Assembly (NCBI GenBank): GCA_950097015.1
Contig: CATNEN010000032.1
Location: 2,728,001-2,792,000 of the forward strand
Direction: 5' to 3'
DNA: 64,000 bases
Source of the DNA: Macrostomum hystrix
Lineage: Eukaryota > Animalia > Platyhelminthes
Shown: positions 12,329-64,000 of the stretch, one piece after another
Layout: every line of letters begins with the position of its first letter
How positions within the stretch are numbered: position 1 is the first letter of the stretch
Notes under the pieces: generated by a model
Databases searched by the model: none
What the model saw: the letters and a program-made list of their open reading frames with translations, nothing else
Told to the model about the DNA's origin: nothing
Translations under genes and position numbers: made by a program

Positions 12329-12376
<48 letters not shown>

Positions 12377-33300: not shown

Positions 33301-33568
33301 AATATACAAATTGTAGGAGGGCTGCGGGCAGTGGCAACATAATTTAGTGACACTAGACCCGCCGCCAGCGAGGAGGCAATTCTACCTATTTCGCTGACTC
33401 CTGAGCACACACGCACACATATGCCGTAGTTCACAGGCATATGCTAACGCCTAACACAGGTGTGTACATCTGCCCTGACTTTCTCATCGTCAGGCAGTGT
33501 ACACACTATCTGTGCCTTGGAGATTGGCCCTCAAGGACGTAAATCGGTCGCGAAGACGCCAAGCCTTC
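33301..33568 (-). mobile_element. SINE family 1, 5'-truncated
   Basis: Matches the 3' two-thirds of the 23487 copy. Confidence 0.85.
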
Positions 33569-38548: not shown

Positions 38549-39454
38549 TTATGTAATAAAAGCCGTCACAGAGGCGGCAATGGTAGAATTACACCTCGGA
38601 CAGCGAGACAGGGGCTCGAGACAGCGGTCGCACAACAGGAAGTGCGCACACGGCAGTGTAACACGATTTCTGGTGCGACGTCGGCAACGGATGCAGCGAT
38701 CGTCTGCCTCGTCTTCGCCGACCGCGTCAACAGCGACACCCACGCCTCCAACGGCTGCTGACGACAAGGCTCTGACGTTGTATCCGTCGACTACAACGCT
38801 GCCTAAGCTGCTGAGTGCTGGCGTTGCTTGAGGCGGTGGCTGCGTCGGCAGCTGCTGCTGTTCGGAAACTGCCCTAGAGCCGGAGTCCTGCATAAAAAAA
38901 CTGTCGAGAAGACGACGCAAATCGAAGCGCATAGCGACTGCCAGCGCCTTAGGATCGGAGTCTTCAATAGATTGGACCAATCGGAGTAGATCGCCTGGCC
39001 GGCTGATAGGCGAACCGGTTGTGGGCCGCAGAAACTCCCTAGCTAAGCACAGGTGAAGGAAAGCCGGCTCGAAGCCGTAGGAGGCCGCGGCGCCAACTAT
39101 GGGCGAGTCGAAGGTTAGGCGCAGTCGACGCAGCTGATTCAGGTACTGCCGAACAGCCGACTCTGCCGCTGTTACCCAATCCGGCGAGTTTGACGGCAGC
39201 TGCGCCAGGTGAACAAGTCGAGCTAGGAGGCACTCTGCACGGTGCGACGTTGGGAAAGACTCTTCAGCTAAAGTTGAGGGATCGAGCTCAGCTTCGCAGC
39301 AGAAGCAGATCGCTATTCGACTATTCTCATCAATATAAAACCCAGAAGCAGCAAGTCGGCTAGCAGACGCCTCGTCACTGACTGACCGCAGCATGGTCGG
39401 TAGGCGATCGACGAAGAGCAGCCAACCAGTTTTGGCGGCAGTAGCCACAAGCAT
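38549..39454 (-). CDS. Intronless inhibitor-of-apoptosis-like protein (BIR-UBA-RING)
   Basis: BIR-like LAASGFY...CFCC...H...C; UBA-like AASYGFEP; C-terminal RING CIRC...LPCAHFLLCDRC...CPRC. Confidence 0.8.
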   Translation of the reverse strand: MLVATAAKTGWLLFVDRLPTMLRSVSDEASASRLAASGFYIDENSRIAICFCCEAELDPSTLAEESFPTSHRAECLLARLVHLAQLPSNSPDWVTAAESAVRQYLNQLRRLRLTFDSPIVGAAASYGFEPAFLHLCLAREFLRPTTGSPISRPGDLLRLVQSIEDSDPKALAVAMRFDLRRLLDSFFMQDSGSRAVSEQQQLPTQPPPQATPALSSLGSVVVDGYNVRALSSAAVGGVGVAVDAVGEDEADDRCIRCRRRTRNRVTLPCAHFLLCDRCLEPLSRCPRCNSTIAASVTAFIT

Positions 39455-41024
39455 CACAACGATGCCTGTGATTGTGTGAATAGAGGGTCGATGTCAGTAT
39501 AACTTAGGTCATTGCTATATTTTGTGTACTTTTTGCTTTCAGTGCACTTAGTTATTTCAATTTCAACGATATGCTTTGCAAATAAAATGGACCAGAGTGC
39601 AAATTTCATTAACACAAATCAGATTTGCAGTCATTTTATTCTGTGTGACAAAGAAGCAATTTAGCGAAAATCCTTACACACGACTCCATTGCGTCGAGAA
39701 TCGGTCGCAAGTCGAAATGTCTCTGCGATTCGTACTTGCAACGCTTGACCGATGATATTCAACAGCGCGCTTTGTGTGAGGTCGTCGGACATAAGGATTC
39801 GTCGTTCTGTCTGCCATCATGAAATGTAAAGATATTTTGAGTTGCAATTAAATTTTATTTGAAATATAAGTGGTACAGCAACAAAAAATTGTTTTATTAA
39901 AAGCCTTTCACAATGACCGTCTGCTTCGCCTGACATCTCTCGTGGCTCGGTAGTTTTTTTCCATTATCCTATTTTATAAAGTAATTTATATCTGTCCCTC
40001 TCCTTGTCTCTGTCACCTGCTTTGTCTTCCTACATCACATATCCTTTCAGATTAGTCGATACCTCACATCTCTAGCACCTCACCTAAGCCTATTCTTCTC
40101 ACTATTCTGTTTAGCTTATCTGTACTTGGCCGTCACTAACAAGAGAGAAATGGAAGGGTGAATGTTTTTAGTAGAAAGTTTAAAAACAGAAGCTAATGTT
40201 TTACTATTTCTACTAGTATATAAAGACAAAATGCTCTACCACTCTAGATAGCTACGTAATTCATTGTTGTAAGTGACTATTATATGCACTTAACAGGCCC
40301 TTATAACATTTAATCATCTGGCATTTTAGTATGTGCTACATTGAAATATTAAGTAATAAGCCTGTGTCAATCTCCATACCCCCTGCTGTCATAACTGCCT
40401 CGTCATTTAAGGAATTAGTTTCAGTTGGGTATATATACCTTTAGTAGAGAAGTGTTTCGATTTTAACACACTGATTCACTATACAGACAGGTCATGTTCT
40501 GACACTGGTCAAGCGAAATTCCGAACAAAACCGCCCAGGAAATGCTAAGGCCACTATGCAGAGAAAGCGTACAGATCAGAAAGGCGTCAAGATATACACA
40601 GACTGAAATCAGCTTGACTCCGGATATAACAGTACAAGGCCAGCAGGCAGCCAGTCCATGGTTCTGGAGTATTGCAGCAAGAGACCACAAATCTGCATCC
40701 GATAGTCGGGAACAAGCAGTGGAGGAAAATATGACAAGCTGCAGCAGCAACTATGACGAAATCCAAGTGAGAAGCGCAGCGTCCGAGTTGGTGAACGAAG
40801 TATTGGTCAAGAGTAATAAACTTTTGGACAGTAGTGGAATTTCAGATAATCGGCCTTAAAATTCGTTTGCCACGAAGCAGTGCTCTTGCATTGATTAGTG
40901 CGCGAAAAATATAGGCTACTCTATTAAAAGCTGCCAATATTCATGAGCCATGAAAAGCGTGTTTTTCGCATATTTGGTTTTTTATTTGTTTTGAACCTAA
41001 ATAAACAAATACGGCGCGTATATT

Positions 41025-47022: not shown

Positions 47023-47750
47023 TCGTGTACACTATAACCAACACCAAGAAGACGGAAGTGCTGACGGTGCCTGCAGAGCTGCCTGCGAACATCACCTGCA
47101 GCACTAGCGACGGCCAAGCAGTTCCCCTCCCTCGCAGCACCCGCTTCACTTATCTCGGCGGGCTGGTCCCAAGTGCCACAGAAGATCTGGCGAGGCGCAG
47201 GGGCCTGGCGTGGGGGGCGCTGCAGACTATCCGGCCGGTCCTGCGGAGCGAGACCCTCCCTGATCGACTCAGGGCTCGGCTGTTCCAGGCGGTGGTCGAG
47301 ACCGTCCTGATGTACAACGCCGAGACCTGGACGGCCACGGAGGCGCTGGAGAGGCAGCTGGACTCGGCGCACTCGGCCCTGCTACGCGCCGCCTTTGGCA
47401 TCCACTTCCCGGAGCGGGTCTCCAACGCCGCCCTTTACTATCGCGCTGGGCTGCACCCACCCAGTGAGACCCTTCGGAGACGGCGGCTGCAGCTGGCAGG
47501 CCATGTGGTGCGCGCCGGGGCCTACTGTCCAGAGCCGGCGCAGGACGTCCTGCTGCTGACCATGCAGGGTCCCCTGCGCCGAGGGCAGGCCAGGACGCAC
47601 CGCTATGTCGAGTGCCTGCTCGCCGATGCTGGTCTCGGCGAGCATCAGACTTGGACAAGAGCAATCGACAATTTCAGGAAGCTGGCTCTTCGGCGTGCCT
47701 TGTGACACTGTGAACTTTTCTTTTCACAGTGTAATTTGTTGTTGTTGTTG
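47023..47750 (+). mobile_element. Young 5'-truncated RTE-like LINE
   Basis: Open RT C-terminus (FTYLGG...LFQAVVETVLMYNAETW...RRRRLQLAGHVVR); 3' stem-loop; (GTT)n tail; 12-bp TSD TATAATCATACA (47011-47022, 47751-47762). Confidence 0.9.
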
Positions 47751-48119: not shown

Positions 48120-48322
48120 GATAATTGGTGGATCGGCCGCGCATAGCACTATTATTTTGGTGACAATAGTATACCTCCAACCAGTGAATAGGCGATTTTG
48201 CAGCCCATTTTGCTGACTCCTGAGCACACACGCACACAGATACCATATTTGCAGACAAGCGCTCACACAGGTGTGTACATATCTGCCCTGACTTTCTCAT
48301 CGTCAAGCAGTGTAAACTTTCA
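48120..48322 (-). mobile_element. SINE family 1, partial diverged copy
   Basis: GCTGACTCCTGAGCACACACGCACACAGATACC...GCCCTGACTTTCTCATCGTCA core. Confidence 0.75.
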
Positions 48323-49199
48323 CTCCCCAAATGACTTTTTTAAACTAAAACTACATTCTTGTTACTACTTATAAGTACTGTATAGTAAATATAATATTAG
48401 TCTAGTATACAGCAGCAGATTGCTAACTCTTGTCTCATTATTCTGATCAAACTTTCTTGAACAGTGCACGAATGCGGATGGAAAAAAGTGGCCATATTTA
48501 TTTTATTTATTATGCATTGGAAATTTATTTTACTTTGAGACATGCATGAGTCCAAAAAGCTTGCACTAGCTGACTTACTTGGGTGCCGCGTTGTCGCCCA
48601 GTGGAAAATACTCCTCTGCATTGAGGTATTTTAATATAGGAAAGTAATGCTCATTTCATTGCTCATTTTACGAGATATCAAGGTCGGTTAGGGCCAGAAC
48701 AGATGGTATAGCAATAATTTCAGAAAAAGCCAATAAAAAGTACGATTCAATATGCGCGTGTGTCATGCTACTAGTTCTATAGTGCTGGAACTGTAAAAGC
48801 TAGCCCGCAAGTAAGCAAGCTAGATTGAGCTAGATTGAGCCCTACAAATGCGATTGTTTCTATATAGAAGTAGATTGGGCTAGAGGGAATGGAGAGCGAG
48901 AAGGGCTATTCGCATTATTGTATAAGGATTTATGCAGCGCTGCAGCGTCTGTTGCGGATTCAGCTACAAAGTGAGTACACGCGCCATGGAAACTGCCAAC
49001 AGTGCGTATTCAAATATTTTAGGCCGGATTGTACAACGCAACAATTGCAAGCAGTAGAGATGGACAGAGAGGACACAGCTAGTGAGGGTATTGTGGAGGG
49101 AGAGAGACAATGAACGTACTTGTTCATTATCATTGCAAAGGTGCACTATACTGTTTTACTATGGTAGTGTGTTGCTGCCTATTATATTTTTTTTGAGAT

Positions 49200-49290
49200 T
49201 CGGACTCTAGACGGGATGGTCTGATGTTCGATTCCCGATTACACTGAAATCAATTGTGGCCCCCCAGTCCATGGACTGAATAGCCGTACG
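49200..49290 (+). mobile_element. SINE family 2 fragment
   Basis: B-box GTTCGATTCC and a CCCCAGTCCATGGACTG segment shared with 2609-2792. Confidence 0.45.
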
Positions 49291-52277
49291 CAGCTTTCAG
49301 ATGCACAGCGCAATGATTATAGTAGGTTACTATAGTAGAGAAGTCTACAAAAGATACTAAAACTCGTAGCTTTCCTACTAGAAAAGCGTTTTATCAATAG
49401 CAGCTTTCTCAGAAGACCAAGCATTTCTGAACTCGGAATGTCTTTCGTCTCATTTACAGCTATACTAGACAGTTATGACTCAAACACAGCGGAGCCATAG
49501 CAGCATACCGCAGCAGAAAGGCACAAGGGCAACAATAGCTAAAGCATGCGTTTTCGTCGTTCACACTTTAAGGAGCCGAGATAGGAGCTAAGATCAAGCT
49601 TATCTTACGAATGCAAAATACGACCCAAAATATGACGTTAGACACAGCGTGGGCATTGAATGTACCTTTAACCTTTAACCTGTTTGAAAATGTAAATTAA
49701 GCATCCACTGCCTATCAAAATCTGCAGTTAAATCTGATGAAGTCACCATGAGCCGCAGCGTGTGCAAAAGTATCATCCTGCATGATCCAGCAAGAGATCA
49801 GAGTCCGAATTCGTAACAGTAATTGCAGCCAAGCATAATCGACCTGCTTGATCGGAAATAAGATTTTCTCTGTGTGGTCCAATATCTTCTCTCACCAACA
49901 TTCAAGTCACCACTTGGCAGTGAGGAGTGATCGTCATTTTTCTGTGCTGAATTTGGCATGTGACTATAAGTGTAACTATATGAATCATAAAAAGGCTATA
50001 TGTAGTGCACACAAATCTTGAAAACGGAACTGCTCATCGCGTTTCCCAGCTTAAATTACTGTTTGAAACCAACCTAAGTATATATTAATAGCTAGGCCTG
50101 TGCTACTTTTTGATAAGACTATTTAGCTCCCACCCAACTATAAATAAAAGTGATAGCGATCATTAACTTGCTCAAATTGCTCATTGACAACAGCAAATAC
50201 AAAAAAGAATTTAACATTTGTAATTTGGCCTTGGCTTTTTATATTGTTCGCAGATCACGTTATTTTAGTAGTACTGATGACAAGTCAACAATTAAGCGAG
50301 AGTAAAGCAGTAAGTAAGGCGAGAGGATCAATTATCTCTATTCAAAAGTGCACTGTTATTATTAAAAAAAGAAAAAACTTACAGATTTAATATTTAGCCG
50401 TTCTTAAATTAGTTTTCCAATATGATTATGATGCACTAAAATTCTTTACTTAAAGTTTATTCGCCGATGAGCGATAAAAAACAATTCCATACATTTTATA
50501 TTTTCGTAATAAATGCTGCGATAATGAAAAATATAGAATTAAGTCGCCATAATAGACCGTAAGTTATAAAAAATATTTCTCTCATGAAGATACTTAACTA
50601 AAGATACTTAGCATCTCACAGCGAATCGAAGTTTTTTGTTTTTCTGCTCTCAGAGTTAACGCGTTTAAAAACGTAATTGAGCTTTGTTTTCTACATATGC
50701 TCACTATAGCTACCACTACTACAGTTCTAAAATACATAGTTTCGTGACTACGCGTCAAAATATTTTATGCTTGGATTGATGATACTGAATATTAAAAAAA
50801 ATATCAAGTATAGAGCTAACTTTGTGCAATGCTTCTTTAGACACAAACAGTTGTTTTAAAATATAACAACATTTCTGCGCATCCAATTTTTATCGTCCTG
50901 TTTTGCTATGGATCGCAAAATATGTGCGATTAACTAAGATGCGAGTATTAACACCAGATTTTCTTGCTACTCTTGTTATCGATTATCAGTACCCTTTAAG
51001 AACAAAAAATTAAGTAAGAATTAAAGCATATGATAAACTATGTGCAAATCAACTCTGATACTTTTTTGAAGTAATCAGAATTGTAATAATTTTAAAACCG
51101 AAATAAATTTACTTATTTTATGTTTTAATTTTATGTATCTACCAAATACAGTTTTTTGGGTTAAGTGATAAAACTAACCGTACTTATTTACATGTCGAGG
51201 ACACTTTTAGACTTCTTAAACGCTTCTTAAACTCTCTTTAAACGCTTCGCGCCAAGTGAGCACACAAATACCAATACAAGTGGCTTTGCTATTCATTTTG
51301 TACAATCGGGCATCATCACTGAGCTCAAGATATATTGTACGCGTGATACTAACTCACAGACCGCAATGCCTCGTGTAACTTATGCGAAAGTAATAATAAA
51401 GTAATTTAGCATTTATTTAGCAGACGACAGCGGCGCAGATTTTACGCTCATAAACCCGATCATTTGTCTGCCCGAATTCAAGCTCTGATTGCCAGCGAAA
51501 TCGGACCAATTATATATCATGATGGTGCGCATGCGGTGATTGGCGTGTAAAATCACTATCGTATATCGTGCAGGCGCCTATGTTTGTTGGGCCACTTGTA
51601 TCCTAGCAATTTTCCTCGAAGTCAAACTAAGATTATAGCTGAGACATGGCCAGCTGCACCGATTTTAAGATCCAAGATGGATCGATTGTTTTGTTAGACA
51701 GAGTATATAGAGACTCTTTACCATATAGATGTATTTTCCGATAATAATGGATCACGCACAGCTTGATAGAAATATTTATAATACTGTAGGGAACTTCTAG
51801 TGTACATGTACTTTTCTAGTAGTGTTCTCGCATTCTGGCATCTATTGTGTGTATTCTGTTTTCAACATTTCTATCTCACCCCGCCTTCACTAGTGTTCTC
51901 TCACGCCCAGATCTCGTGATTGGCCGACTCTTTACTCGTTGTCACCCACCCCCCGCTGCCACCCTTACCCTGCGCGTAGTTCATGCAAGCCTTTATAAGC
52001 TGCCGTATCGCTAAGTAGGTTGTCTTGTTGACACGCTTAGTGTTATTGTTATTGCGGTGAAATATGAGCTACGTCTGGATTATTAATATACCGAATATGA
52101 GTCTGAGAAGTTTGAGAAGCCAGAGCTAACGATTAAAAGTTAGTGTACTTCGTGTCGGTCCATAGTAACTTTAATTTCCAAACTGGGATATTTATGCGAT
52201 GTGAGTCTCTACCGACAAACAATTGTGTCCACAATTACAAGGCGCAATCTTTTGCGGAAGTAAGTAGTATGGGTTAA

Positions 52278-52528
52278 CAGAACTCTGCCGCAAGGAATTC
52301 CGCGGAAATTCCGTGGGGCCCTAGTTTGCGAACATAGCGCCTATGTTTCACATAGCAGAACTCTGCCGCAAGGAAATCCGCGGAAATTCCATGGGACCCA
52401 GTGCATGTACATAGGCCCATGTTTTACATAGCAAAACTCTGCCGCAAGGAAGTCCTCGGAAATTCCGTGGGGTCCTATAGTGTGTGAACAAACGCCATGT
52501 GTTTGCATAGTGGACTCTGTCGCAGGTA
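52278..52528. repeat. ~78-bp subterminal tandem repeat (~3.3 copies) with an internal palindrome
   Basis: Units start near 52278, 52356, 52432 and 52511; each full unit contains GGAA(T/A)TCCGCGGAAATTCC or a close variant. Confidence 0.85.
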
Positions 52529-52837
52529 AATCTGTCTGAGAGGGAGAGAGGCAGTCAGTGCAGTCTGATAAACCGATTGTTTATTCAGTTCCACTCCTCC
52601 AATGGGAATTTCACTTTTGCTCTGGTCTGTGTTATTTTTTCATATGAAGACAACAACAAAACAACTGTTGGTCTGGGGAAAACAGTGAAACCACCGTCTG
52701 TTTGCAGTGGGTATGGCCAACACTGTAGAAATAGGACAGTGGATGCGTAGCATGGATACATAAACTCTGCCTAATGTTATTATATGTTTTCTTAGTATTA
52801 TATATGCGCCCACAGTCTCACCCACCCCATTACATTA

Positions 52838-52870
52838 ACCCACCCCACTCCGCTGGTATATAAGGGTGGG
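52838..52870 (+). promoter_or_regulatory. Candidate TATA-box promoter of the PC4-like gene
   Basis: TATATAAG at ~52856, flanked by CCCACCCC upstream (twice) and GGTGGGG downstream, ~85 nt before the ATG at 52944. Confidence 0.45.
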
Positions 52871-52943
52871 GATTTTTTTATTGTTAAGAGAGGATTTCTT
52901 TAAAACTAATAGCCATTTCGTCACGTAAGTTTGACCTGCTACC

Positions 52944-53702
52944 ATGGATCTTAGCGACGGCTTCAAAGTTCAAGTGCAGGAGTATGAAGGCAATAGATTC
53001 ATCGCTATCCGACGCTTCTACTCTTCTGACGGGGAGCTGAAGCCTGGAATCCCTGGATTCAACTTGAACGTACACCAATGGGAGAAGCTGAAGCAGCTAA
53101 GGCGCCAACTCGTGCAGGCTGCAGTCAACCGACGAAACGTCACTGCCAAGCTGGGCTCCGACAAGCTCGTAGAAGTCAAGCGAGGAGTCATCTGGCTCAA
53201 GCGACTGCCGGAGGACTGCACGGAGGATTTCCTGAGACGGAATTCGATCGAGATGACTCCCCGTCTGTGGCGAGCGCTGTGGTGCCATGTCGACCGGATC
53301 AGTAGTGAGCTGAGAGGAAAGTCACCGGAGTGCGAGTACGAGCTGGACCCTCAGGACATCAAGACCGAGCCGGACATCGAGAATCGGGCGGGCCAACACT
53401 CTAGTGAGGATGCGGACGACGAGAAGACGCTGCTGATTTCCGAGTCAGACAACGCAACCTCCGAACCGCTTCCAGCTGCAGCCCAACTTTCGACGCCCAA
53501 AGCATTCGGCTGCATCCCACAGCAGGACAGCGACCTGTCTCAGGATCCTTACTGGTACCAGGCCCGAGCGGCTGCGGGTCTCAGTGTCAACTGCTTGATC
53601 GGAAGCCGCAAGCGCAAGCAGCCATGGCCTCTGCGTAGGAGCGATGCGATCAAGTTTCCGAAGCTGACGGATGACTCAGATGAAAACAAGGACAACGAGT
53701 GA
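52944..53702 (+). CDS. PC4/Sub1-like ssDNA-binding protein (probably two tandem PC4 repeats plus an acidic tail)
   Basis: VQVQEYEGNRFIAIRRFYSSDGELKPGIPGFNLNVHQWEKLK matches the PC4 signature; a second degenerate repeat ends SIEMTPRLWRAL..VDRI. Confidence 0.8.
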   Translation: MDLSDGFKVQVQEYEGNRFIAIRRFYSSDGELKPGIPGFNLNVHQWEKLKQLRRQLVQAAVNRRNVTAKLGSDKLVEVKRGVIWLKRLPEDCTEDFLRRNSIEMTPRLWRALWCHVDRISSELRGKSPECEYELDPQDIKTEPDIENRAGQHSSEDADDEKTLLISESDNATSEPLPAAAQLSTPKAFGCIPQQDSDLSQDPYWYQARAAAGLSVNCLIGSRKRKQPWPLRRSDAIKFPKLTDDSDENKDNE

Positions 53703-53986
53703 ATTTCCAAGTGACAGTACATGCGTCAAATAATTTCTAACTTCTTTCATTTGGTCAAATGCGCACTAAGCTTATTATCTATCCAGCCATATTTCAGCAA
53801 TATAGGCTACAGTGTAATTTTGCTCTGTGCTTTTCGCAATAGCTAATTTAACTGTCTTTTTTGGCTTTATTTCTCGGTATATGTATCAAGACATTTTATA
53901 AACTACATTGTGGCAATGCAACTTAAGAAAGTTGCTAAAGACAATAAATAATATTGATTCTGACATCCTCTTCATGTTGGAAAATG

Positions 53987-55051
53987 GAAAAGCTTTACTA
54001 CAATCCCGCTCAGCCGGCCAGTTTCTCAGGTGCATCAAAGTTGCAGCAGCAACTAGGGAAAAATAATGAGGGGAAATCTAGAAAATACATTGAGCTGTGG
54101 TTAACTGAACAGCCCGTGCACACACTGCACAGGTCGGCTAGAAGGCGCTATCCCAGAGCACCAATCATAGTGAGAGCGATAGATGACCAGTGGGAACTTG
54201 ACCTGGTCGAGATGATCCCATTCGCCAAGTACAACAAAGGCTACAAGTACATCCTCACTTGCATTGACGTGTTGTCTAAATCAGCATGGGCCAAGCCGTT
54301 GAAGAACAAATCAGCTGCAGAAGTAAAGTCCGCATTCGAGAGCATTTTGAGATGCTCAAAGCGCCAGCCTCGCACAGTCCGCACAGATCAGGGAAAAGAA
54401 TTCATAAACACTAATTTTAGGCAGTTCTGCATACAGCGGGGAATCCTGGCCTTCAAAACTAACAGTGAGCAGAAAGCTGCAGTAATTGAGCGATGGAACC
54501 GAACTTTGAAGAGTAAGATGTGGAAATATTTCACTCACAAGAGCACACTGCTCTGGATTGATGTGCTGCCTAAGCTGGTGAAATCATACAACAATACTTA
54601 CCACAGAAGTATCAAAATGGCACCGACAAGTGTCTGCAAAGAGAATGAGTCTGAGGTGTGGATGAATCTGTACGACGGAAAGGCAATTGAGACTGTACAG
54701 CGACCCAAGAAGCCAAAGTTCTGTGAGAAACAGTCTGTGAGAATTTCAAATGCACCCAGGCTGTTCCAAAAGGGATACAAGGCCAACTGGAGCGAGGAGG
54801 TATACACTGTAGTGTGCAGGGCACCAAAGCACTACCCGTACATGTACAAGATCCGAGACATGAAGGGTGAGGAGATTCGCGGGCTCTTTCACGAGTATGA
54901 GCTGCAGGCTGTTCCGGAATCACAGCGGCTGTATGTCATTGAGAAGGTTTTGAAGTCAGAAAAGCGCAATGGGAAAATCCGCTATCTTGTCAAGTGGGCT
55001 GGCTACAACTCCACAGGCTGGGTGGATGAAAAGGACTTAAGAAAAGTGTAG
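53987..55051 (+). CDS. Retroviral-type (rve) integrase with C-terminal chromodomain-like module
   Basis: DDE triad WELDLVEM / RTDQGKEF / IERWNRTLK; GYKANWSEE; YVIEKVL...RYLVKWAGY. Start codon approximate. Confidence 0.95.
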   Translation, partial: EKLYYNPAQPASFSGASKLQQQLGKNNEGKSRKYIELWLTEQPVHTLHRSARRRYPRAPIIVRAIDDQWELDLVEMIPFAKYNKGYKYILTCIDVLSKSAWAKPLKNKSAAEVKSAFESILRCSKRQPRTVRTDQGKEFINTNFRQFCIQRGILAFKTNSEQKAAVIERWNRTLKSKMWKYFTHKSTLLWIDVLPKLVKSYNNTYHRSIKMAPTSVCKENESEVWMNLYDGKAIETVQRPKKPKFCEKQSVRISNAPRLFQKGYKANWSEEVYTVVCRAPKHYPYMYKIRDMKGEEIRGLFHEYELQAVPESQRLYVIEKVLKSEKRNGKIRYLVKWAGYNSTGWVDEKDLRKV

Positions 55052-55086
55052 ATAAGCTACAGATAAAAAAAAAATAATCAGATATA

Positions 55087-55899
55087 ATGAGAAACATTGT
55101 CATCAACAGCAACCATGGTGAAGGTATTTCTAGTGATTTTTATTTTTACCTTGCTTCACCTCTTTACCTGGATCGAAATGTGGACTATGAGGCAGCTCTT
55201 GTGGAAATCCATCTACCTGCTGCATGGTTCAATCTTGACGAACCTTACTGCATCTCTGTCTCAGATGGAAGAGAGCATGAGACCCTGGTTCTTCAACCTG
55301 GATGCTTTGGCAGAGTGGAGGAGCTGGTGGAGTCTTTGAATGAGCTGCTAGCCAACTCACGGCTGCAGTTCTTTGATGCTAGAAGTGATGGAGATGCTGC
55401 AATGGAGGCTGATCAGTCAGGTCTGATGGGACATTCTGCACCTGCTGCGGACAATGGAATAAGGTGTACAATTGATGGCTCAAGGACAGTGGTGCAGAAT
55501 AACACAGCTCAGGTGGAGCTGTATCTCCCGCCTCACCGGATTCTGCAGTGGCTTGGATTCGGAAGCCAAGGATTAAAAGTCCCACCTGGGCGTCTCGTAT
55601 CTGAGCAGTTCATCGGCTGCCCGCGCACCAACCTAATCAATGTGCACTGCAGCATCATTGAGTCGAACAACTGCAACCACAGCTCCCTGCTGAGAACTGT
55701 TAGAATGAGAGATGACATTCAATGGGGTGGCTATGTGAGCAAAGTGTTTAAGAAAACGATATTCTTCACCATTCCTAGAGTCATCTATCTACATGGTATT
55801 CGAGTGCAGTTGCGAGATATTTTTGGAAGCCTACTGATCGCGCAGTCCAGCAGTCCAGTTTTGCTAACAATTCAGATCCGTGAAAAAAGAATTTTATGA
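55087..55899 (+). CDS. Minor capsid (penton) protein
   Basis: Polinton minor-capsid-like N-terminus DFYFYLASPLYL..DYEAALVEIHLPAAWFNL; C-terminal VHCSII...LLRTV; located upstream of the major capsid gene. Confidence 0.75.
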   Translation: MRNIVINSNHGEGISSDFYFYLASPLYLDRNVDYEAALVEIHLPAAWFNLDEPYCISVSDGREHETLVLQPGCFGRVEELVESLNELLANSRLQFFDARSDGDAAMEADQSGLMGHSAPAADNGIRCTIDGSRTVVQNNTAQVELYLPPHRILQWLGFGSQGLKVPPGRLVSEQFIGCPRTNLINVHCSIIESNNCNHSSLLRTVRMRDDIQWGGYVSKVFKKTIFFTIPRVIYLHGIRVQLRDIFGSLLIAQSSSPVLLTIQIREKRIL

Positions 55900-56264
55900 A
55901 TTACCAGCAGCTGATTCGGCATTACTCGGGAGTTCAAACCCTTGGGGAGAAACCGGTACTCTATGGCTGCGGCAGCGCTCCAGGGCTCATGACGTACCAA
56001 CCTCCACCGGTTGCTACAACTGCAGGTGCAGCGCGGCTAATAGACAAAAGGGAAAGTAAAAAGCCATCTGTGCGATCGAAAAGAAAACGAAAACATTCTG
56101 CTAAGGGTGACACAGGAAAGAAGAGTTCAAGAAAAAATCAGACGAGGGCCGGAAACAAAAAGCTTAAGAAGAAGAGAAAAACTAGGAAACAGAAAAAGGT
56201 AGGACAAGGAAAGCAAAAAATCTACAGAAAAACTGTGAAACGCGTACTGGATTCTCTGTCCTAA
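55896..56264 (+). CDS. Basic, Lys/Arg-rich putative DNA-condensing core protein precursor
   Basis: The C-terminal half is highly basic; LYGCG fits the adenain (M/I/L)xGx-G consensus; overlaps the upstream stop (ATGA). Confidence 0.65.
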   Translation: MNYQQLIRHYSGVQTLGEKPVLYGCGSAPGLMTYQPPPVATTAGAARLIDKRESKKPSVRSKRKRKHSAKGDTGKKSSRKNQTRAGNKKLKKKRKTRKQKKVGQGKQKIYRKTVKRVLDSLS

Positions 56265-56268
56265 CAAT

Positions 56269-57549
56269 ATGGCTTACGGGTTCAACCCTAGACTCGATCT
56301 GTTCAAGGCGCCTGTGCTTCAGACCTGTATTGAGAAATCTGCTTATGTTGACATTCATCCTGTAAACTCTATTGTTGCAAACTCACCAATTGAATTTGAC
56401 TGCCATCAATCAGCTGATGAGTACACTGACCTGCTGAATTCGTTTCTCTATATTCGTTGTCGCGTTGTGAGATTGGGTGGTGCCCTGATCAGGGAGGATA
56501 TTGTGACTGATGGTGCTGTTACCGAGCGCAGAGACAGCCAAGTGCACCCGGAGAATTTTGTTCTAGCTACGGCCTTCTCGGATGTAATTGTCAGCATCAA
56601 CCAGCGCATTGTCTCTGGAGGAGACCAGCTGTATCCCTACCATGCCTACTTCAAAGCTCTCATGAGCTCCTCCGATGCCCAGCAGCTTAAGTTTTACCCT
56701 GCTGGATTCCTGGAACCCGACTCTGCCGATGAGAGCCACACCGAGAGGCATATGATCTCCAACTGGGTGGAATATGCGGGACCCCTCCTCAGCGACATCT
56801 TCCAGTGCCCCGTGTTCCTGCTCAACAACTTGCACCTGCACATCAAACTAGTGCCCAGCGATGGAGCCTTTGCCATTAGAGCTCCTGCCCTCAACACCAC
56901 AGCTTACCGAATGGAAATTTCCCACTGCATCCTGTACCTTCGCCGTGTCAAGGTGGTGCCCCACATCAGCCTGGCTCATGAGCAGGGACTAACGAATCAA
57001 AATGCTCTCTACCCGATCGAGCGAACTGAAATGCAGAACTTTATCCTGCCCCATGGAATTCAGTCAAAGAACATCGAGGGATTCACGCACGGAAAGCTCC
57101 CGAAGTTCATCATGCTGGCATTTGTGAGCCACCGAGCCTTCAACGGTCATCACCACTCCAGCCCGTTCCAGTTCCAAAGCTTCGAGCTGAGCCAGCTAGC
57201 TCTCAAGAAAGGGGGTGAATCAATGTGCCATGGGGCATTCACACCCGAGAACAATTCGTTTGTGAGGGAGTACCTGCACTATTTGAAAAGCTGCCAATCT
57301 GCAAGCTCCAGTGGTTCAGTTCCGTGGATTCCCTACCAACTGTTCTCGAACGAGAACACAGTGTTCGCATTTGATCTCACACCTGAGGGAGCAGCTCTGT
57401 GGTACGGCCAGAAGGAGGGAAACCTGCGGCTGGAGATTCGCTTTCGACGGGCACTGGATGAAGCCGTGTCGCTGATTGTCATGTGCGTCTATGACTCACT
57501 GATTGAAGTAACCAAGCACAGGGAGCTCTTGCTGGACTATTCATCTTGA
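56269..57549 (+). CDS. Major capsid protein (double jelly-roll, Polinton PY type)
   Basis: DLFKAPVLQTCIEKSAYVDIHP..PIEF..EYTDL; PKFIMLAFV...AFNG; FAFDL; GNLRLEIRF. Confidence 0.9.
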   Translation: MAYGFNPRLDLFKAPVLQTCIEKSAYVDIHPVNSIVANSPIEFDCHQSADEYTDLLNSFLYIRCRVVRLGGALIREDIVTDGAVTERRDSQVHPENFVLATAFSDVIVSINQRIVSGGDQLYPYHAYFKALMSSSDAQQLKFYPAGFLEPDSADESHTERHMISNWVEYAGPLLSDIFQCPVFLLNNLHLHIKLVPSDGAFAIRAPALNTTAYRMEISHCILYLRRVKVVPHISLAHEQGLTNQNALYPIERTEMQNFILPHGIQSKNIEGFTHGKLPKFIMLAFVSHRAFNGHHHSSPFQFQSFELSQLALKKGGESMCHGAFTPENNSFVREYLHYLKSCQSASSSGSVPWIPYQLFSNENTVFAFDLTPEGAALWYGQKEGNLRLEIRFRRALDEAVSLIVMCVYDSLIEVTKHRELLLDYSS

Positions 57550-57561
57550 GAGTACTGAAGG

Positions 57562-58077
57562 ATGGACTCAACTCAACTGTACTCTCTAACAAGGAGCTTT
57601 TTACCCAGCTCCAAAATCGTTATACTCACTCTCTGCTTAAAGCAGAGAGCTGTCACTGTAAATGCGGGCCAGAATTTGATGAAAAAATGCTTCAACCGAA
57701 ATAAAATAATTTTCATTCTGCTAAAACACAGCGTCAGTTTTGGACACTGGGTTGTATGCCACTTTGCTGATGGAAATACAGTGGAGTTATTCAATTCTCT
57801 TGGTTGGGATGAAGAAGCTTTAGCTGTAATTCATGAATACTTGAAGGATATAGGTGGGATGGTTCAATTTCAACTGGTTTGCAACGTCAATAAAATCCAA
57901 AGCGCTCAGTCGGACAAGTGCGGCCTGTTTTGTGTCTACTTTGCCCACCAGAGGCTAGCTTTGAAGCGGTCCTTCCTGGGTATTCTCACGAGTCTGCATG
58001 CAAAGAAGAAATGTCACCTGAATGATAAAGTACTCAGGCAATTTGAAGTTTGCTTAAGAAAAACCCAGAAACCTTGA
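57562..58077 (+). CDS. Adenain/Ulp1-like cysteine protease
   Basis: GHW, FNSLG and Q-SAQSDKCGLFC give the catalytic His/Asn/Gln/Cys order. Confidence 0.9.
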   Translation: MDSTQLYSLTRSFLPSSKIVILTLCLKQRAVTVNAGQNLMKKCFNRNKIIFILLKHSVSFGHWVVCHFADGNTVELFNSLGWDEEALAVIHEYLKDIGGMVQFQLVCNVNKIQSAQSDKCGLFCVYFAHQRLALKRSFLGILTSLHAKKKCHLNDKVLRQFEVCLRKTQKP

Positions 58078-58103
58078 GTATATTCTGAAAGTCTATTGAA
58101 GAG

Positions 58104-58751
58104 ATGGAATCTCAGAAAGCATGCTACGATGTTCGCCTGCGTCAGGGCAGCTGCATGATTGTCAGCGGTCCCACAAATGCGGGAAAGACAACCTTTGTGA
58201 AGCATCTAATTCAGTATAGGGAAGTCCTATTCGACATTCAACCTGGCAGAGTGCTCTGGTACTATGGGATTCCACAGCCGGCGCATGCTGAGCTAAGCCG
58301 CCTGGGGGTCCACTTGCAGCAGGGATTCCCCTCCAACTTTGAAACAGCACTCAGATCCAATGACCTGGTTGTGTTTGACGACTTGATTGACGAAAGCTCA
58401 AGTTCTGCTTCAATGCGAAATATCTTTACTGGAATAGCCCATCATCTGCCCTGCTTTCTGGTGATGCTGACTCAGAACATGTTTTTCAAGGGAAAGGAGT
58501 TGCGGACGATGAGTTTGAATGCCATGTACTTCGTAATCATGAAGAACCCCAGAGATCAGCTGCAGATTTCCGCATTGGGCAGGCAGTGCTTTCCCGAGAA
58601 GCCGAGTTTTCTGCTTGCGGTGTTCAAGCATGTCACATCCCAGGGTAGGGGGGCATATCTGTTTCTGGATTTCCACCCGTCCACCCCCGATGAGCTGCGA
58701 GTCCGAGCGCGAGTTCTGCCCAATCAGCGCCCCCATCTGGTCTATGCTTAA
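58104..58751 (+). CDS. A32/FtsK-like genome-packaging ATPase
   Basis: Walker A GPTNAGKT; Walker B VVFDDL; LTQNMF; RTMSLNAMY. Confidence 0.93.
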   Translation: MESQKACYDVRLRQGSCMIVSGPTNAGKTTFVKHLIQYREVLFDIQPGRVLWYYGIPQPAHAELSRLGVHLQQGFPSNFETALRSNDLVVFDDLIDESSSSASMRNIFTGIAHHLPCFLVMLTQNMFFKGKELRTMSLNAMYFVIMKNPRDQLQISALGRQCFPEKPSFLLAVFKHVTSQGRGAYLFLDFHPSTPDELRVRARVLPNQRPHLVYA

Positions 58752-58800
58752 GAATGGATCACTTGTGATCATCCTGGTCATTCAAACAAAGAAAATTAAT

Positions 58801-59124
58801 ATGGAAGTGTTTGATTGCCATCAAAGTTTGTTTGAAGTTCTAGCCTCATATGCTAAATACACTATTCGCCTCAAGCGCATGTTAATAAAAGAAAGCCCAA
58901 AAGAAGTTGGAATTTTCCTTGCTGAAGCCTGCCACAACCTGCTACAAGACAATTTACCCTTCTCACCTCAAGAGAAGGCTGTACTTAAAAAATCAAAGGA
59001 AATTATCCGCAGAATCCCTGCAAAGAAAAGAAAAGCTGATTTGCTGACTACTGCTTTCATTAAGATTCTTCCAGTTCTGCTGAAACTTGTGAAGAAGAGG
59101 AGGGCAAATGCACAAATTCAATGA
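58801..59124 (+). CDS. Small conserved Polinton virion protein (basic, amphipathic C-terminus)
   Basis: EACHNLLQDNLPFSPQEKAVLKKSKEIIRRI resembles the recurrent Polinton E..xNxLxGNxPL small ORF; ATG at 58801. Confidence 0.55.
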   Translation: MEVFDCHQSLFEVLASYAKYTIRLKRMLIKESPKEVGIFLAEACHNLLQDNLPFSPQEKAVLKKSKEIIRRIPAKKRKADLLTTAFIKILPVLLKLVKKRRANAQIQ

Positions 59125-59833
59125 AATGGTTTTAATTGCGAAATCAGAGTATGAAATGCTGACACAGAGTGTAAAGCCCACTGAGTCTGTAACTGATGCG
59201 ACCATGAAACAGGCGCAGATGAAGTGTGATGAAATTCTGTTCGCTGAAGATTGTCCTGACGATGTGAAGACTGCCATGTACCAGAGTGCAATGAAAAGCC
59301 TGCTGGTCAAACGCAAGCAGCTAGGAAACGAAGTGAGAGGTAGTGAGGCAAAAGTTTTGAAAGTGGAGATGACAGGTAGAAACTTGGATGAAAAGATCTA
59401 TCAGTCAGTGCCACAGAAGTTCAAGGCAAGAGCTCGCAGTCTATGGGCCATCCTGTCCGGTAATGAGTCTTCAATCCGAGTTTATGACAATGGGGAGGTC
59501 GAGATTTCAGGCCGCTTGATCCCCGCCTCAAACATTGTGGATTTAATTCAGCACACTGTAAGAGACTCACAGAGTGCCAGTGAACCAACTGGCTGGAAAG
59601 AATTCATTGATTTACTAAGACAAAAGGACCTAAATGTCCCTTTGACTGCAGTTGGAAAGTTTGCTCGCAAGCAAATTCTGCAGCACACTGCTGATGGCGC
59701 TGATAGAGTTCGCAATGAACAATCTCCAATCAAGGGATTAGGCAGTGAGTGTGCGTGGCTAAGGCTTAACAAAGGCAGAAGAAACGCTATAATAACTCGA
59801 ATGAAAAATAGAAAAATATTTTCAAAAGTTTGA
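59108..59833 (+). CDS. Conserved uncharacterised Polinton protein
   Basis: ILFAEDCPDDVKTAMY and GEVEISGRLIPASNIVDLI resemble a recurrent Polinton ORF; it lies within the compact gene array. Confidence 0.6.
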   Translation: MHKFNEMVLIAKSEYEMLTQSVKPTESVTDATMKQAQMKCDEILFAEDCPDDVKTAMYQSAMKSLLVKRKQLGNEVRGSEAKVLKVEMTGRNLDEKIYQSVPQKFKARARSLWAILSGNESSIRVYDNGEVEISGRLIPASNIVDLIQHTVRDSQSASEPTGWKEFIDLLRQKDLNVPLTAVGKFARKQILQHTADGADRVRNEQSPIKGLGSECAWLRLNKGRRNAIITRMKNRKIFSKV

Positions 59834-59863
59834 AGCGGTGTCCATACCAAAAGAGCTCGAAGT

Positions 59864-59889
59864 ATGGCATCACCGGTACCACCACCACC

Positions 59890-59930
<41 letters not shown>

Positions 59931-60526
59931 TCGAATTGAATACAGCAGCTTCAACCCTGAGGGTCACCAATCTGGTTGGCGGAGTGGATCTAAGACTGAC
60001 TGGAGGCAGGGGCGCCCAGCTTCCTTTAAGGGAGCTGGCTCTCAGCATGGCTAATGTGATCTACCGGCCCGTTTGGCCCCGAGTGCTCATCAAGCAGATG
60101 CGTCAACCCAGAGTCACCCTGCTGCTCTACCCAACTGGTCAACTGAGCATCTGCGGCGCAAAGTGCTACTCCGACTCAGTCAGAGCTGCCCATCGCTTCG
60201 TGGCTATGCTACATCGCCGAGTGCCGGCTCAACTGCTGCCTCGTCAAGCTGTCTGCTTGAGAATCAAGACTATCACTGCGCATGGCAAACTTAATTTTAG
60301 CAATGCACTTCCCTTGGCGAATCTTGTTGATGCATTGCCGAACGCTGAATATGAACCCGAAACTTTTACTGCTTTAATATGTAAACTCCGTAATTGTAAA
60401 TGTTTGCTATTTCACAATGGCTCATTTGTACTCAGTGGTGCAAAGTCAATGAATGTGCTGGAGGAGGACTTATCTCATTTGCTCAACCTTCTCTCTGCGA
60501 ATTCGTTGTTTTTTCAAAATAAATAA
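59864..60526 (+). CDS. Divergent TATA-binding-protein (TBP/TRF)-like protein
   Basis: Two TBP repeats: TNLVG.VDL...NVIYRP..VLIKQMRQPRVTLLLYPTGQLSICGAK and YEPETFTALICKL..KCLLFHNGSFVLSGAK. N-terminal polyAla. Confidence 0.85.
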
Positions 60527-61211
60527 ATCGAAAGCGTGTTCCAAGAATCTAGCAAATTTTCATGCCGATTGAAATGTTGTTGAACAAAATCAGTGCGTCA
60601 GATATATTTTCTTTCATCGTTGAATTTTATTTTGTAAAAAGTATTTCGATTCTTTAAATTTAATCGCAGACGTGTTGCGAACCGTAAAATAAAAATATCG
60701 TTCGAAACCGCGACAAGCAACAAACCAGAAACCCACAGTTACGAATGGTAAAATGTTAAAAAGGGGCAGAATAGAGAAACTAGAAAGCAAAACCTACGCA
60801 AACACGACACAACTACAGCAAGCAAGCATATGATCACCTCCACCACAATTATACGAAGTACACATCGCACATGAAAAAGTAAAATATTTTTATAGTTCAT
60901 TTAAGTTTTGAAACATTTTCAAAACAGTGAATAATTTAACTCAGATTTTCATTCCTTTAGCATTAGCTTTAGTTCCTTTAGTCAATCCGTCAGTCAATTA
61001 GTCGATTTAGTCAATATTAACGTAGAAAGTTTCGAATGGATTGTCTGCTTTAAACCTAAAGAGCTTTTTGTTTTCTAGATAACTAGGCTAAATTTCTAAG
61101 TGATTTTTTAGTTCTGATTTAATCGAAAATTAGTTTTGCCAATCGTTTTTTAACATGCAGAATTAGCAGAAATTAAAATTACTGGATTTCTGTCAAATAA
61201 TCAACGCGTGA

Positions 61212-64000
61212 TTAATCCTCATCATGATGGCGTGAACTGGCTAGGCGCCGCTTGCGTTTGGTGATACCATTTTGATGTTGCTGCTGCTGTAGAAGTCGGA
61301 AGTGTCCGAACGGGAGACTGCAGTTCGGTCCTAGCCAGGCACGCTTGTCCTCCCAAATGCTAAGCGCACACTTCCTTTGTTGCAGAGTGAAGAGTCTGTG
61401 TCGTATGCTGGCAATACGCTGAACAACGACAGAGAGGCTGCAGAGCTCTTTGAAGACCTTCAAGTAGTCGCTATGAGCAATCTCCCTCTTGACAACACAT
61501 CCCTGAATACCTTTAGCTCTTTTCTTCTCGGCTGATTCATCGCTTGCCCTAAACGAGTAAAGCTTCGGTCTCAGGAGCAGCCACTCCAGATAGTAAGCTC
61601 CTGCTGCTTCATCCTTGATGCAACCCAGACGAGCCTTTAATTCGTTCGAGAACAGTGCATGCTGGGGTGGATAGTTTGAGGTATCTAATAACCGCTTCGA
61701 CTTGAGCAGAGGCAGAACTCCAGACTGAACGCTCATGTTGCTGATTGAAAGAAAGAAAGAGTCGGTATCTCCACCACAGAGTCTCACACTAGCTCCTTCC
61801 TGCTCAATCCATGGCTTGAGCTTGTCGTAGAAAAGTTCATACATGATCATCTTCGAATAGTCCAGAACGCACTGTCCAATGAAGATTGGTCGGTCAAGTT
61901 TAATCTTGGTCTTCTGCAACTCCATAATGCTAAGCGAGCCGGTAATAATGTTGAAACTTGTCACTGACGGCTTCGAGGCGAGCACCTTCGCCTTTGCAAC
62001 ATCGGTGCAAATTCTAATGTCGCGTCTCTTACGCACATTTTCCATTGTCTTGCCAAACAATGCGTTGTTTTTCAGCTTGTAAAAATCTTTTTCAAAGCTG
62101 TTTGATGCAGCAGCTCGCTTTGCACTATTTTTCTCGACATACGAAGCAAAGACGGGCTCTTGTCGGAACTCAATCATGCGATTGATACACTTTATTCGCA
62201 TTCCATGTCGTAAGTAAAATGCCAGTATGGAAGAATGAAGTATATAGGACTTCTTGTCATGGCAGGTGAGCATTAGCTTCTCTGTTGGATGGTAGGCAGA
62301 GTCCTCTTTACCAAATTGCTTCCACAGCTGCTTCATGTATTCAGGAAACTCGCTGAAACTCGGCGCCATCTTTTCTGGCGCAAATGGTAAATCTTCTGTG
62401 CTGGTATGAATCTCTATCGGGTACAGAAGGTCAGCATCGATAAGGTAGGCAACAGAATCTGTCGTTTGCAGTCCTTGAATACGATCATCTGTCCATAGGA
62501 GCAACTCTTCTTCGTCTAGCCAGCGGAAGTCTCCAACTGGCAAATGCATCGTGAGAGCTTGTCCATAGAGGTTGTTGGCGTCTACTGCGAGGAGCTCAGT
62601 GCGATCAGCTGGTGGAGTTGTCAGGTCTGTCTCACTCTCATCATCATCGCACTGAGAGCTTACATTACGTGGGCTTGCCAACACTCGGTGAACGTTCACA
62701 AAAGTTATGCCTCCTCGAATTCCACACTCAAACATTGAATACATTTGCAGATCTGTTAAAAGTTCGATTGGAGACCTGATGGACTTTAGCGCAGAAGCAA
62801 AAGATAGTCCTGGAGTTGTAATGAAATGAACAGGATCAAGACCATCCTCTCGAAGACTGAGCTTCCGAAAATTTTCAAACACATCTGCAAGCTGTCTAAT
62901 GTCCAACTCAAGGTAGCGCAGCATGTAGTCCTTCAAATTGGTCACCTGAAATTCATGCCAGGCTCGCTGTGCATGCTCATAATCCGAGTCGCTGCAGTGA
63001 CTCTTCGTAAGAAGATTATAAAAGTTTTCTTTGCTGGGAAGTACCATGTCATTGAGCACATCGATCTTCGTCAGATAATCATACGGAAAGATGCCTTTGT
63101 TGAACAACACTTCCGATGACAGACTCGGATACGAGTTTTTAAGCCGAGCCGTGATTGGGCATTCTTCTTCTGGCAAATTCTTGATCAGCTGTGCCAGGCT
63201 GGCATTCAGGAACTGATTGGAATCGATGAATTGAATAGTGAAATAGAGCGGCTTGATCTTGCCCTCACTCTCATATTCATCGATTTTGAATTCAATCTTA
63301 ATAGCGAGAAACTGCTCAGGATTCTGCGGTATGACTGAAATTCTCCATCCTTCCATGAGACCCAACGCTGTTGACAACATCAGATGAATGTCATACCCTT
63401 TTAAGTTGTGCATGATGATGGGTAGAAAGCGTCTCTTTAGTCTCGCTTGCATGTTGCAGGGTGGGCAAGCGGCTCCTCGGAATATACCACTCAGGTGATC
63501 ATGATCCCAGTGTTTCTGGGACTCGTTCTGAAACTGGCTTCCACAGTGGCAGCAGGCTACGGCTTCTCGAAACAGCTTTTTAGCTGCATCAGTCTTTATG
63601 GCTGCCTGCCTACTGAACTCCGTGTTCCAGCCGTAGACTTCTCGAGCGAGCTGCTCCAGTGACTGCAGGAACTCGGCAATGCACTTGTTGGGATCATCGC
63701 TAACAAAAGTGCTCACTTTGTCATCAGCTCCCCGAGGTGCTAATCCTGTCATGCCTTCTCTGTGCACCACAATGTAGCCCGCGGCAACGGCAACATGCTC
63801 AGTGACCTTCTTCGTAGATGAACCTGCTGGTAGATCGTCTTGACATGGTACATTCAGTGCTTCAAAGTCGGCATAAACAACGAATGGTGGACTGATTGTT
63901 TTTTCCCATGACGAAAATTGCAAAAAAATGTGATTTACATCTGGCAACTCTTCCTTTACGTTGATCACTCCAGGTTGACAAGGAGCTCGACAGTGCTCTT
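61212..64000 (-). CDS. Protein-primed family B DNA polymerase with an endonuclease VII-like insertion; 5' end outside the window
   Basis: Exonuclease motifs YADFE, HNLKGYD, YLELD; CCHC...DHDHLSGIFRGAACPPCN; polymerase motifs DANNLYG, KLKNNALFGK, DTDS, RPKLY, AKGI. The frame stays open to the window edge. Confidence 0.96.
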   Translation of the reverse strand, partial: EHCRAPCQPGVINVKEELPDVNHIFLQFSSWEKTISPPFVVYADFEALNVPCQDDLPAGSSTKKVTEHVAVAAGYIVVHREGMTGLAPRGADDKVSTFVSDDPNKCIAEFLQSLEQLAREVYGWNTEFSRQAAIKTDAAKKLFREAVACCHCGSQFQNESQKHWDHDHLSGIFRGAACPPCNMQARLKRRFLPIIMHNLKGYDIHLMLSTALGLMEGWRISVIPQNPEQFLAIKIEFKIDEYESEGKIKPLYFTIQFIDSNQFLNASLAQLIKNLPEEECPITARLKNSYPSLSSEVLFNKGIFPYDYLTKIDVLNDMVLPSKENFYNLLTKSHCSDSDYEHAQRAWHEFQVTNLKDYMLRYLELDIRQLADVFENFRKLSLREDGLDPVHFITTPGLSFASALKSIRSPIELLTDLQMYSMFECGIRGGITFVNVHRVLASPRNVSSQCDDDESETDLTTPPADRTELLAVDANNLYGQALTMHLPVGDFRWLDEEELLLWTDDRIQGLQTTDSVAYLIDADLLYPIEIHTSTEDLPFAPEKMAPSFSEFPEYMKQLWKQFGKEDSAYHPTEKLMLTCHDKKSYILHSSILAFYLRHGMRIKCINRMIEFRQEPVFASYVEKNSAKRAAASNSFEKDFYKLKNNALFGKTMENVRKRRDIRICTDVAKAKVLASKPSVTSFNIITGSLSIMELQKTKIKLDRPIFIGQCVLDYSKMIMYELFYDKLKPWIEQEGASVRLCGGDTDSFFLSISNMSVQSGVLPLLKSKRLLDTSNYPPQHALFSNELKARLGCIKDEAAGAYYLEWLLLRPKLYSFRASDESAEKKRAKGIQGCVVKREIAHSDYLKVFKELCSLSVVVQRIASIRHRLFTLQQRKCALSIWEDKRAWLGPNCSLPFGHFRLLQQQQHQNGITKRKRRLASSRHHDED

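Follow-up and report, generated by a model that had tools for sequence, protein, structure and literature searches.

One end of the 64,000-nt stretch of DNA analysed here (the window) carries a Maverick/Polinton whose last plus-strand gene encodes a TBP-like protein. This element TBP likely reads a box, CTTAAGAA, located before five of the element's genes, and in this way it would borrow the host RNA polymerase. Mavericks have no RNA polymerase of their own, and a matching factor and box in one element bear on the question of how they could time capsid-gene expression. Viral TBPs are already known, and one related element has been published with a TBP label; our additions are cDNA evidence, the box with its controls, and a kept TFIIB loop. 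The original prediction was that the element encodes a transcription module made of TBP and a second accessory gene, PC4. The TBP half gains support from conservation in sister elements, a rebuilt DNA face, kept TFIIB contacts and the box before the integrase and virion genes. The pairing of TBP with PC4 gained no support: the PC4 gene is preceded by a TATA box of the host type, and a separate cDNA 5′ end marks it.

Structure of the element

Judged by its sequence, the element is an endogenous Maverick/Polinton, and its closest named relatives are Macrostomum lignano gene models, which makes a macrostomid flatworm the likely host. The left terminus is at 52263 and reads AGTAGT, the 5′-(AGT)2 end motif of Mavericks (PMC8097293). 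A flank contig in run X1 terminates at 52262, and a contig in run X3 fuses 52263 to a different flank. The left end is therefore real, and copies of the element occupy two insertion sites or more. The sequence from the terminus to 52520 is likely the left terminal inverted repeat, with its partner beyond the window. Single near-identical element contigs in X1 reach depths of 188–289, whereas a flank contig has 63; although depth does not measure copy number, these values suggest a few close element copies. Relatives were sought in IMG/VR with TBP, capsid, PolB and integrase, and none was found.

Within the window, no interruption is seen in any of the ten plus-strand ORFs or in the single PolB frame on the minus strand (Table 1). 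The plus-strand order is PC4-like, integrase, 270 aa, 122 aa basic, 426 aa, protease, ATPase, 107 aa, 241 aa and TBP-like. The minus-strand pPolB converges on this array and is still open at position 64000. The element had been called intact, which holds for the ORFs in the window. An intact Maverick/Polinton is defined by both terminal inverted repeats and a 6-bp target-site duplication (PMC8097293), and here the right terminal repeat and the duplication, like the 5′ end of PolB, fall beyond 64000. The accessory genes stand at the two ends of the plus-strand array as noted originally, PC4 (PF02229) being first and TBP (PF00352) last. Between the convergent TBP and PolB genes is an AT-rich gap of 685 nt (60527–61211); each strand of it has poly(A) signals, and none of its ORFs exceeds 53 aa.

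Table 1. Features of the element, with position in the window, strand and supporting observation
Feature	Position	Strand	Observation
Left terminus and three ~77-nt subterminal repeats	52263..52520	+	AGTAGT, contig boundaries
Canonical TATA box TATATAAG	52857..52864	+	before PC4 gene
PC4-like protein, 252 aa	52944..53702	+	PC4 domain at residues 3–51, then middle and acidic S/T/P-rich tail with RKRK
CTTAAGAA box	53922..53929	+	62 nt before integrase ATG
rve integrase with weak C-terminal chromodomain, 355 aa	53984..55051	+	PF00665 E 1.2e-13; catalytic motifs
CTTAAGAA box	55036..55043	+	51 nt before 270-aa ORF
270-aa ORF	55087..55899	+	no family match (Pfam, PHROGs)
122-aa basic ORF	55896..56264	+	one-mismatch box at 55747
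CTTAAGAA box	56163..56170	+	106 nt before 426-aa ORF
426-aa ORF	56269..57549	+	87.5% identity over 40 aa to M. lignano model P0007
Adenain-like protease, 171 aa	57562..58077	+	Pfam E 0.0085, under cut-off; His and Cys motifs
CTTAAGAA box	58053..58060	+	51 nt before ATPase ATG
Packaging ATPase, 215 aa	58104..58751	+	Walker A and B; Pox_A32 E 0.059, below cut-off
CTTAAGAA box	58747..58754	+	54 nt before ATG at 58801
107-aa ORF, frame open from 58630	58801..59124	+	no Pfam match
241-aa ORF	59108..59833	+	68% identity over 81 aa to P0007; one-mismatch box at 58984
Upstream of TBP		+	one-mismatch box at 59765; TATAAT at 59788
Two-lobed TBP-like protein, 220 aa, poly-Ala leader	59864..60526	+	PF00352 in two stretches, E 1.9e-24
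Protein-primed family B DNA polymerase, at least 928 aa	61212..64000	-	PF03175 E 1.3e-17; catalytic motifs; 5′ end outside window

A Pfam scan took in 11 element proteins, and PC4, rve integrase, TBP, DNA_pol_B_2 and Endonuclease_7 scored above the cut-offs. From its size, position and Maverick-like motifs, the 426-aa ORF is likely the major capsid protein. The 270-aa ORF is likely the minor capsid protein by position and size, and the 122-aa basic ORF likely a DNA-binding core protein. Neither capsid candidate (270 aa, 426 aa) matched Pfam or PHROGs, and a PDB sequence search with the 426-aa ORF gave no match. The third site of the protease is Asn (FNSLG); Maverick proteases usually read FDS-G, with Asp at this position. 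The 107-aa ORF presumably resembles a conserved Maverick accessory protein. The 241-aa ORF had no match in Atlas.

The flanking DNA contains what we take to be host exons, resembling arginyl-transferase (1654–2562), CTU1 (10718–12441), mitochondrial RNA polymerase (13327–15688), an Ig-domain protein (24576–25493), a NACHT-type protein (27187–29169), a fibrinogen domain (36737–37189) and a BIR/RING protein (38549–39493). These exons, at 1654–39493, lie among many minisatellites of 16–39 nt. A C-terminal fragment at 47150–47705 is presumably, by motif, like LINE reverse transcriptase. Very high-copy short repeats occur at 48203–48330 and 49260–49310, where X1 has thousands of contigs, and the first of them has relatives at 1391–1549, 23591–23851, 30703–30957 and 33337–33569. 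The flank at 48300–50440 has contigs in X1, X2, X3 and X4; it lies about 1.8 kb away from where the element inserted and may be a host transcript.

The element TBP and its relatives

A structure model of the TBP was built on a 102-row alignment, consisting of the window protein and 101 of 155 proteins, with long or fused proteins mostly left out. The model (pLDDT 94.3) has a two-lobed saddle fold. Its best PDB match is 1ais_A (E 2e-14, TM 0.83), and it compares with archaeal and human TBP at TM 0.79–0.83.

The gene did not enter this copy as a one-off insertion, which had been foreseen as the case against the prediction. A word search found 5 TBP relatives at 69–75% identity among 868 candidates. 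With HMMER, 5 of 1086 matches had E<=1e-30 (52–83% identity), followed by a gap down to distant TBPs. Gene order is conserved as well: in the fused M. lignano model P0007, matches to the 426-aa ORF, ATPase, 241-aa ORF and TBP follow one another as they do here. Run X2 has TBP-like contigs about 86% identical to the window copy. Divergent TBP-like contigs over 59952–60448 were seen not only in X2 but also in X6, which belongs to a second study, an indication that several families carry TBP. A quick tree places the 8 element-type rows together on a single branch (SH-aLRT 96), among long branches and on the side with Blastocystis and Taenia TBPs. A metagenome scan covering 2 of 64 parts gave 80 loci at 24–31% identity, and 0 of the 80 matched another element protein. 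Variants were counted from the 40 coding variants shown in read tables, and in this small, tool-selected subset TBP has 5 synonymous and 1 non-synonymous.

The N-terminus of the gene varies. A GCA microsatellite at 59880–59928 encodes the poly-Ala leader, the closest relatives (P0001–P0004) are without it, and loose ends at 59948–59952 in X3 and X4 reveal other TBP N-termini. A second gene arrangement beside TBP is seen in M. lignano model P0005, where TBP is fused to an upstream domain of ~140 aa without a Pfam match. This domain presumably resembles a Maverick exonuclease-like protein.

Yeast residue numbers were assigned by alignment column from Table 1 of PMC12529657, and 8 clade rows, among them two near-duplicate pairs, were compared with 94 others. 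All 8 clade rows keep N69, L114, F190, L205 and F207, and in all 8 the changes F99->P, F116->Y, V122->S, T124->C and N159->T are fixed. The F99->P position adjoins an invariant W in these rows. The equivalent of P191 is S or T in 8/8 clade rows and P in 82/94 others, and V161 is T or S in the clade. Set against the canonical cellular TBP, two intercalating Phe are kept, one is Tyr and one Pro, and the second Asn is Thr. Because one intercalating Phe has become Pro, DNA binding by the element TBP may be weak. The C-lobe glutamates E141 and E143 of the E-P-E TFIIB loop are kept in 8/8 clade rows, and this glutamate pair binds TFIIB (PMC7221094). A P191-type proline favours T at the first TATA position, and KSHV ORF24 turns V122, T124 and V161 polar (PMC12529657). 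As far as residues can tell, the element TBP is re-tuned, not decayed.

A box before five genes

Within the element, CTTAAGAA has 5 exact copies on the plus strand and 0 on the minus strand, with 0.23 expected. The word was picked after the fact, so we tested how often any 8-mer is common to 5 of 10 upstream windows. This occurred in 1/5000, 0/5000 and 0/5000 cases in three controls; for any 7-mer the counts were 27/5000, 7/5000 and 2/5000. For the 107-aa ORF the later Met (58801) was chosen because the first ATG falls inside the ATPase, and this was done before the motif was seen. Four of the boxes lie inside upstream ORFs and occupy all three phases, so a repeated peptide is no explanation.

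Boxes with one mismatch are found upstream of three further genes, encoding the basic protein, the 241-aa protein and TBP; in the flank such sites are common (26 plus-strand in 52 kb). The protease gene has no box, one-mismatch included, within 150 nt upstream, and the PC4 gene has no CTTAAGAA box on its strand. TTAAGA at 59060 was considered as a box and dropped; X2, X3 and X4 contigs have another letter at 59061. CTTAAGAA differs from TATAAAAG at positions 1, 2, 6 and 8, and we infer that C at position 1 fits the lost TBP proline. The link from TBP to box is a prediction, made from the residue changes and the box position.

The TBP-like protein could instead be a decoy that sequesters host TFIIB to dampen host transcription, or a structural binder of the terminal repeats for replication or packaging. 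Either role would suit a protein that keeps the acidic TFIIB loop while the N-lobe Phe and second Asn are lost, and whose gene closes the virion array, to which X2 contigs join it. The DNA-face residues, however, are fixed in new states in 8/8 rows and not degraded, and the TATA-like 8-mer marks five genes and is missing from the subterminal repeats. We consider this explanation distinctly unlikely.

Transcripts in public runs

Transcript evidence comes from one run of one study. Run X2, which is labelled 'DNA?', has a contig over the PC4 gene (52892–53962) with the 5′ loose end GTATCAACGCAGAGTACGGG. The first 17 letters of this end match the template-switch oligo handle whose sequence is printed in PMC13234734, and it ends in GGG. 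The PC4 cDNA has its 5′ end at ~52892–52894, 35 nt downstream of where the TATA box begins, and its 3′ end 14 nt past an AATAAA (53943). Taken together, the oligo end and the TATA and AATAAA spacing mean that X2 is likely cDNA, as read from its loose ends, and that PC4 is very likely a stand-alone sense transcript. Other X2 loose ends carry what we take to be the Nextera adapter.

The X2 contig at 55080–59874 has 7 differences in 4795 nt and crosses seven ORFs and three AATAAA hexamers. Beyond the GCA repeat, contigs 59936–60250 and 60221–60577 cover TBP with 0 differences. Such close agreement indicates transcription through the virion array and TBP, either of this copy or of a sister almost identical to it. 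The contig start at 55080 is in a TCA context with just 3 loose letters, and the clear oligo-marked 5′ end is that of PC4 only. The distance from box to 55080 is 44 nt, or 38 in sister contigs without 6 nt. A TATA box lies roughly 30 nt from the start, and 44 nt is longer. X2 covers the integrase, despite its box, with one 156-nt contig at depth 2.2, and contigs cannot rank genes or show absence. The same caution, that contigs cannot show absence, applies to the terminal repeats and PolB, over which X2 has zero contigs, and to X3 and X4, which have little or none over PolB. A single X2 contig over seven ORFs speaks against TBP-driven initiation at each box, as no internal box is shown starting a transcript.

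Macrostomum uses spliced-leader trans-splicing. The box could instead be an RNA-level or host-read signal, with a polycistronic RNA resolved by trans-splicing or re-initiation, or with a host factor at the box, and TBP would have another target. The contig that spans 55080–59874 across three AATAAA hexamers agrees with this, as do the strand specificity of the box and its position near ATGs. Yet none of the 18 loose ends shown (5 others are not shown) looks like a spliced leader, the sequence downstream is A-rich without a common pyrimidine tract and AG, and the integrase box is outside the long contig. The fixed changes in the TBP DNA face would also be left unexplained. These points make an RNA-level or host-read box improbable in our estimate.

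The PC4-like protein

The PC4 domain scores 42.5 bits against a cut-off of 25 (PF02229, E 4.5e-11) and is confined to N-terminal residues 3–51, with 4usg_A as best PDB match (E 1.5e-6). It keeps aromatic and some basic ssDNA-contact residues (Y14, R23, Y26, K33 and W46); the RK pair of human PC4 is IP in the element protein. Atlas returned PC4 clusters at 0.84–0.87 for the PC4 query, a lead only, and the N-terminal part as query found no relative among 21 and 8 candidates. A second PC4 repeat, giving a doubled single-chain fold, was plausible by eye, and pairwise comparison, Pfam and a single-sequence model (pLDDT 55) gave it no support; these are weak tests without an alignment.

Listed PC4 variants are 6 non-synonymous and 2 synonymous, against 1 non-synonymous and 5 synonymous for the 426-aa ORF, both in the small, tool-selected subset. 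An X3 contig over the tail (53359–53561) has 8 nt missing and 37 nt replaced by 6, a net loss of 39 nt over which the frame shifts and then returns. From the 6:2 variants and this frame shift, the tail looks loosely constrained.

The original prediction had both accessory genes as Pol II basal factors. This applies to TBP; PC4, a co-factor of Pol II that binds ssDNA, is not a basal factor in the strict sense. The PC4-like protein might still act with TBP as a co-activator, TBP reading the box, the PC4 domain holding the melted promoter and the acidic tail serving as activation domain. Near-identical contigs of X2 cover both genes, the ssDNA-contact residues are kept, the tail has 25 D/E in 122 residues and RKRK, and an early host-driven PC4 would be present before the late genes start. 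Weighing against a co-activator, only the ssDNA-binding domain of PC4 is matched and the tail is loosely constrained. We regard a joint module of this kind as unlikely. A complex prediction for TBP and the PC4 N-terminal part returned 'no answer', with a score of 0.00.

Protein-primed polymerases require an ssDNA-binding helper, as established for adenovirus and phi29. No other candidate for such a helper is visible in the part of the element within the window. The PC4-like protein is probably a separate ssDNA-binding helper, a reading we rank above the co-activator; its ssDNA role is likely on the grounds of its fold.

A proposed late switch

In the account we favour, whose chance we put just short of even, the element TBP binds CTTAAGAA and so brings TFIIB and Pol II of the host to the genes for integrase and virion proteins, and the PC4-like protein is a separately switched, host-TBP-driven ssDNA-binding helper. 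Host TBP would start PC4 from TATATAAG and perhaps seed TBP from TATAAT at 59788. With Ser or Thr in place of the proline and polar residues in place of the hydrophobic face, the element TBP would accept C at box position 1. Host TFIIB would then bind its kept acidic loop; the host protein is proposed as partner because no TFIIB-like gene was found among the 11 ORFs scanned in the visible part of the element. The one-mismatch box before the TBP gene could give positive feedback. The PC4 domain would coat displaced strands in protein-primed replication. Against this account, the TBP gene could itself belong to the transcription unit that its product would activate.

More broadly, and tentatively, a germline Maverick transcribed today may hold the smallest late switch so far known in a eukaryotic DNA virus. 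An altered-specificity TBP of ~190 residues would read CTTAAGAA with host TFIIB and Pol II, using no viral TFIIB, polymerase or partner complex, and it would be primed by a host-driven, PC4-like early gene. If true, the element would have arrived independently at a solution much simpler than the herpesvirus complex of six proteins, and its TBP and promoter would be a naturally orthogonal pair that still uses host TFIIB. The transcripts are already in public data from a likely lab-tractable flatworm, so the proposal is directly testable.

Comparison with known systems

The element shares with Mavericks, Polintons and adintoviruses the AGTAGT end, rve integrase, pPolB (PF03175) and intronless ORFs, along with a putative packaging ATPase, a putative adenain-like protease and probable capsid genes (Barreat & Katzourakis PMC8097293; Starrett et al. 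PMC8502044). It differs in carrying TBP and PC4-like genes; 'TBP' and 'PC4' have 0 occurrences in the available text of PMC8097293. The Fig. 5 legend of PMC8502044 gives a TBP label on the map of a MELD-virus, an element with adintovirus-like PolB (preprint 10.1101/697771). That TBP is a label only, in the section on non-animal datasets, and the available text has neither a promoter motif nor an analysis of residues, and mentions neither expression nor PC4; its supplement, over the first 4 million characters, holds 0 TBP matches. Prior description of the pairing, which would have told against its novelty, applies to TBP alone, as this label: TBP with PC4 in a Polinton/Maverick was not found in the literature searched, mostly without subscription papers. 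One 'Polinton + PC4' literature match was set aside as a cluster label. Sporadic TBPs occur in mirusvirus-like elements (PMC10675990).

The PC4 fold is an ssDNA binder and unwinder with a replication homologue in phage T5 (PMC7549692). The element protein shares the ssDNA-binding domain with PC4/Sub1 and the phage T5 homologue. Unlike PC4/Sub1, it has this domain at the N-terminus, followed by a middle part and the acidic tail, with IP for the human RK pair.

Giant-virus TBPs and poxvirus VITF-3 are likewise virus-encoded two-lobed TBPs (PMC7221094, PMC12917281), and the fold of the element TBP finds matches in BFVD (best E 3.1e-12). These viruses mostly have their own TFIIB, and poxviruses also an RNA polymerase, and the first glutamate is ~40% conserved; at this glutamate pair the majority of viral TBPs have diverged (PMC7221094). 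In contrast, the element TBP keeps both glutamates, with no TFIIB gene seen.

The closest working analogue is the vTBP of beta- and gamma-herpesviruses (KSHV ORF24, EBV BcRF1), whose DNA face is polar; it recognises the non-standard TATA-like word TATTWAA and relies on the host's Pol II to express late genes (PMC12529657). KSHV ORF24 has 752 aa, works alongside five other viral activators, makes its own contact with Pol II and is without the TFIIB-binding acidic residues (PMC12529657). The element TBP, in contrast, is a bare core of ~190 aa that keeps the acidic residues, with no partner set evident. Measured against the herpesvirus pre-initiation complex, it is a 220-aa protein with a different box and no partner activators among the 11 ORFs. 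By analogy, the element is not a member of the herpesvirus viral-TBP late switch and would work most like it.
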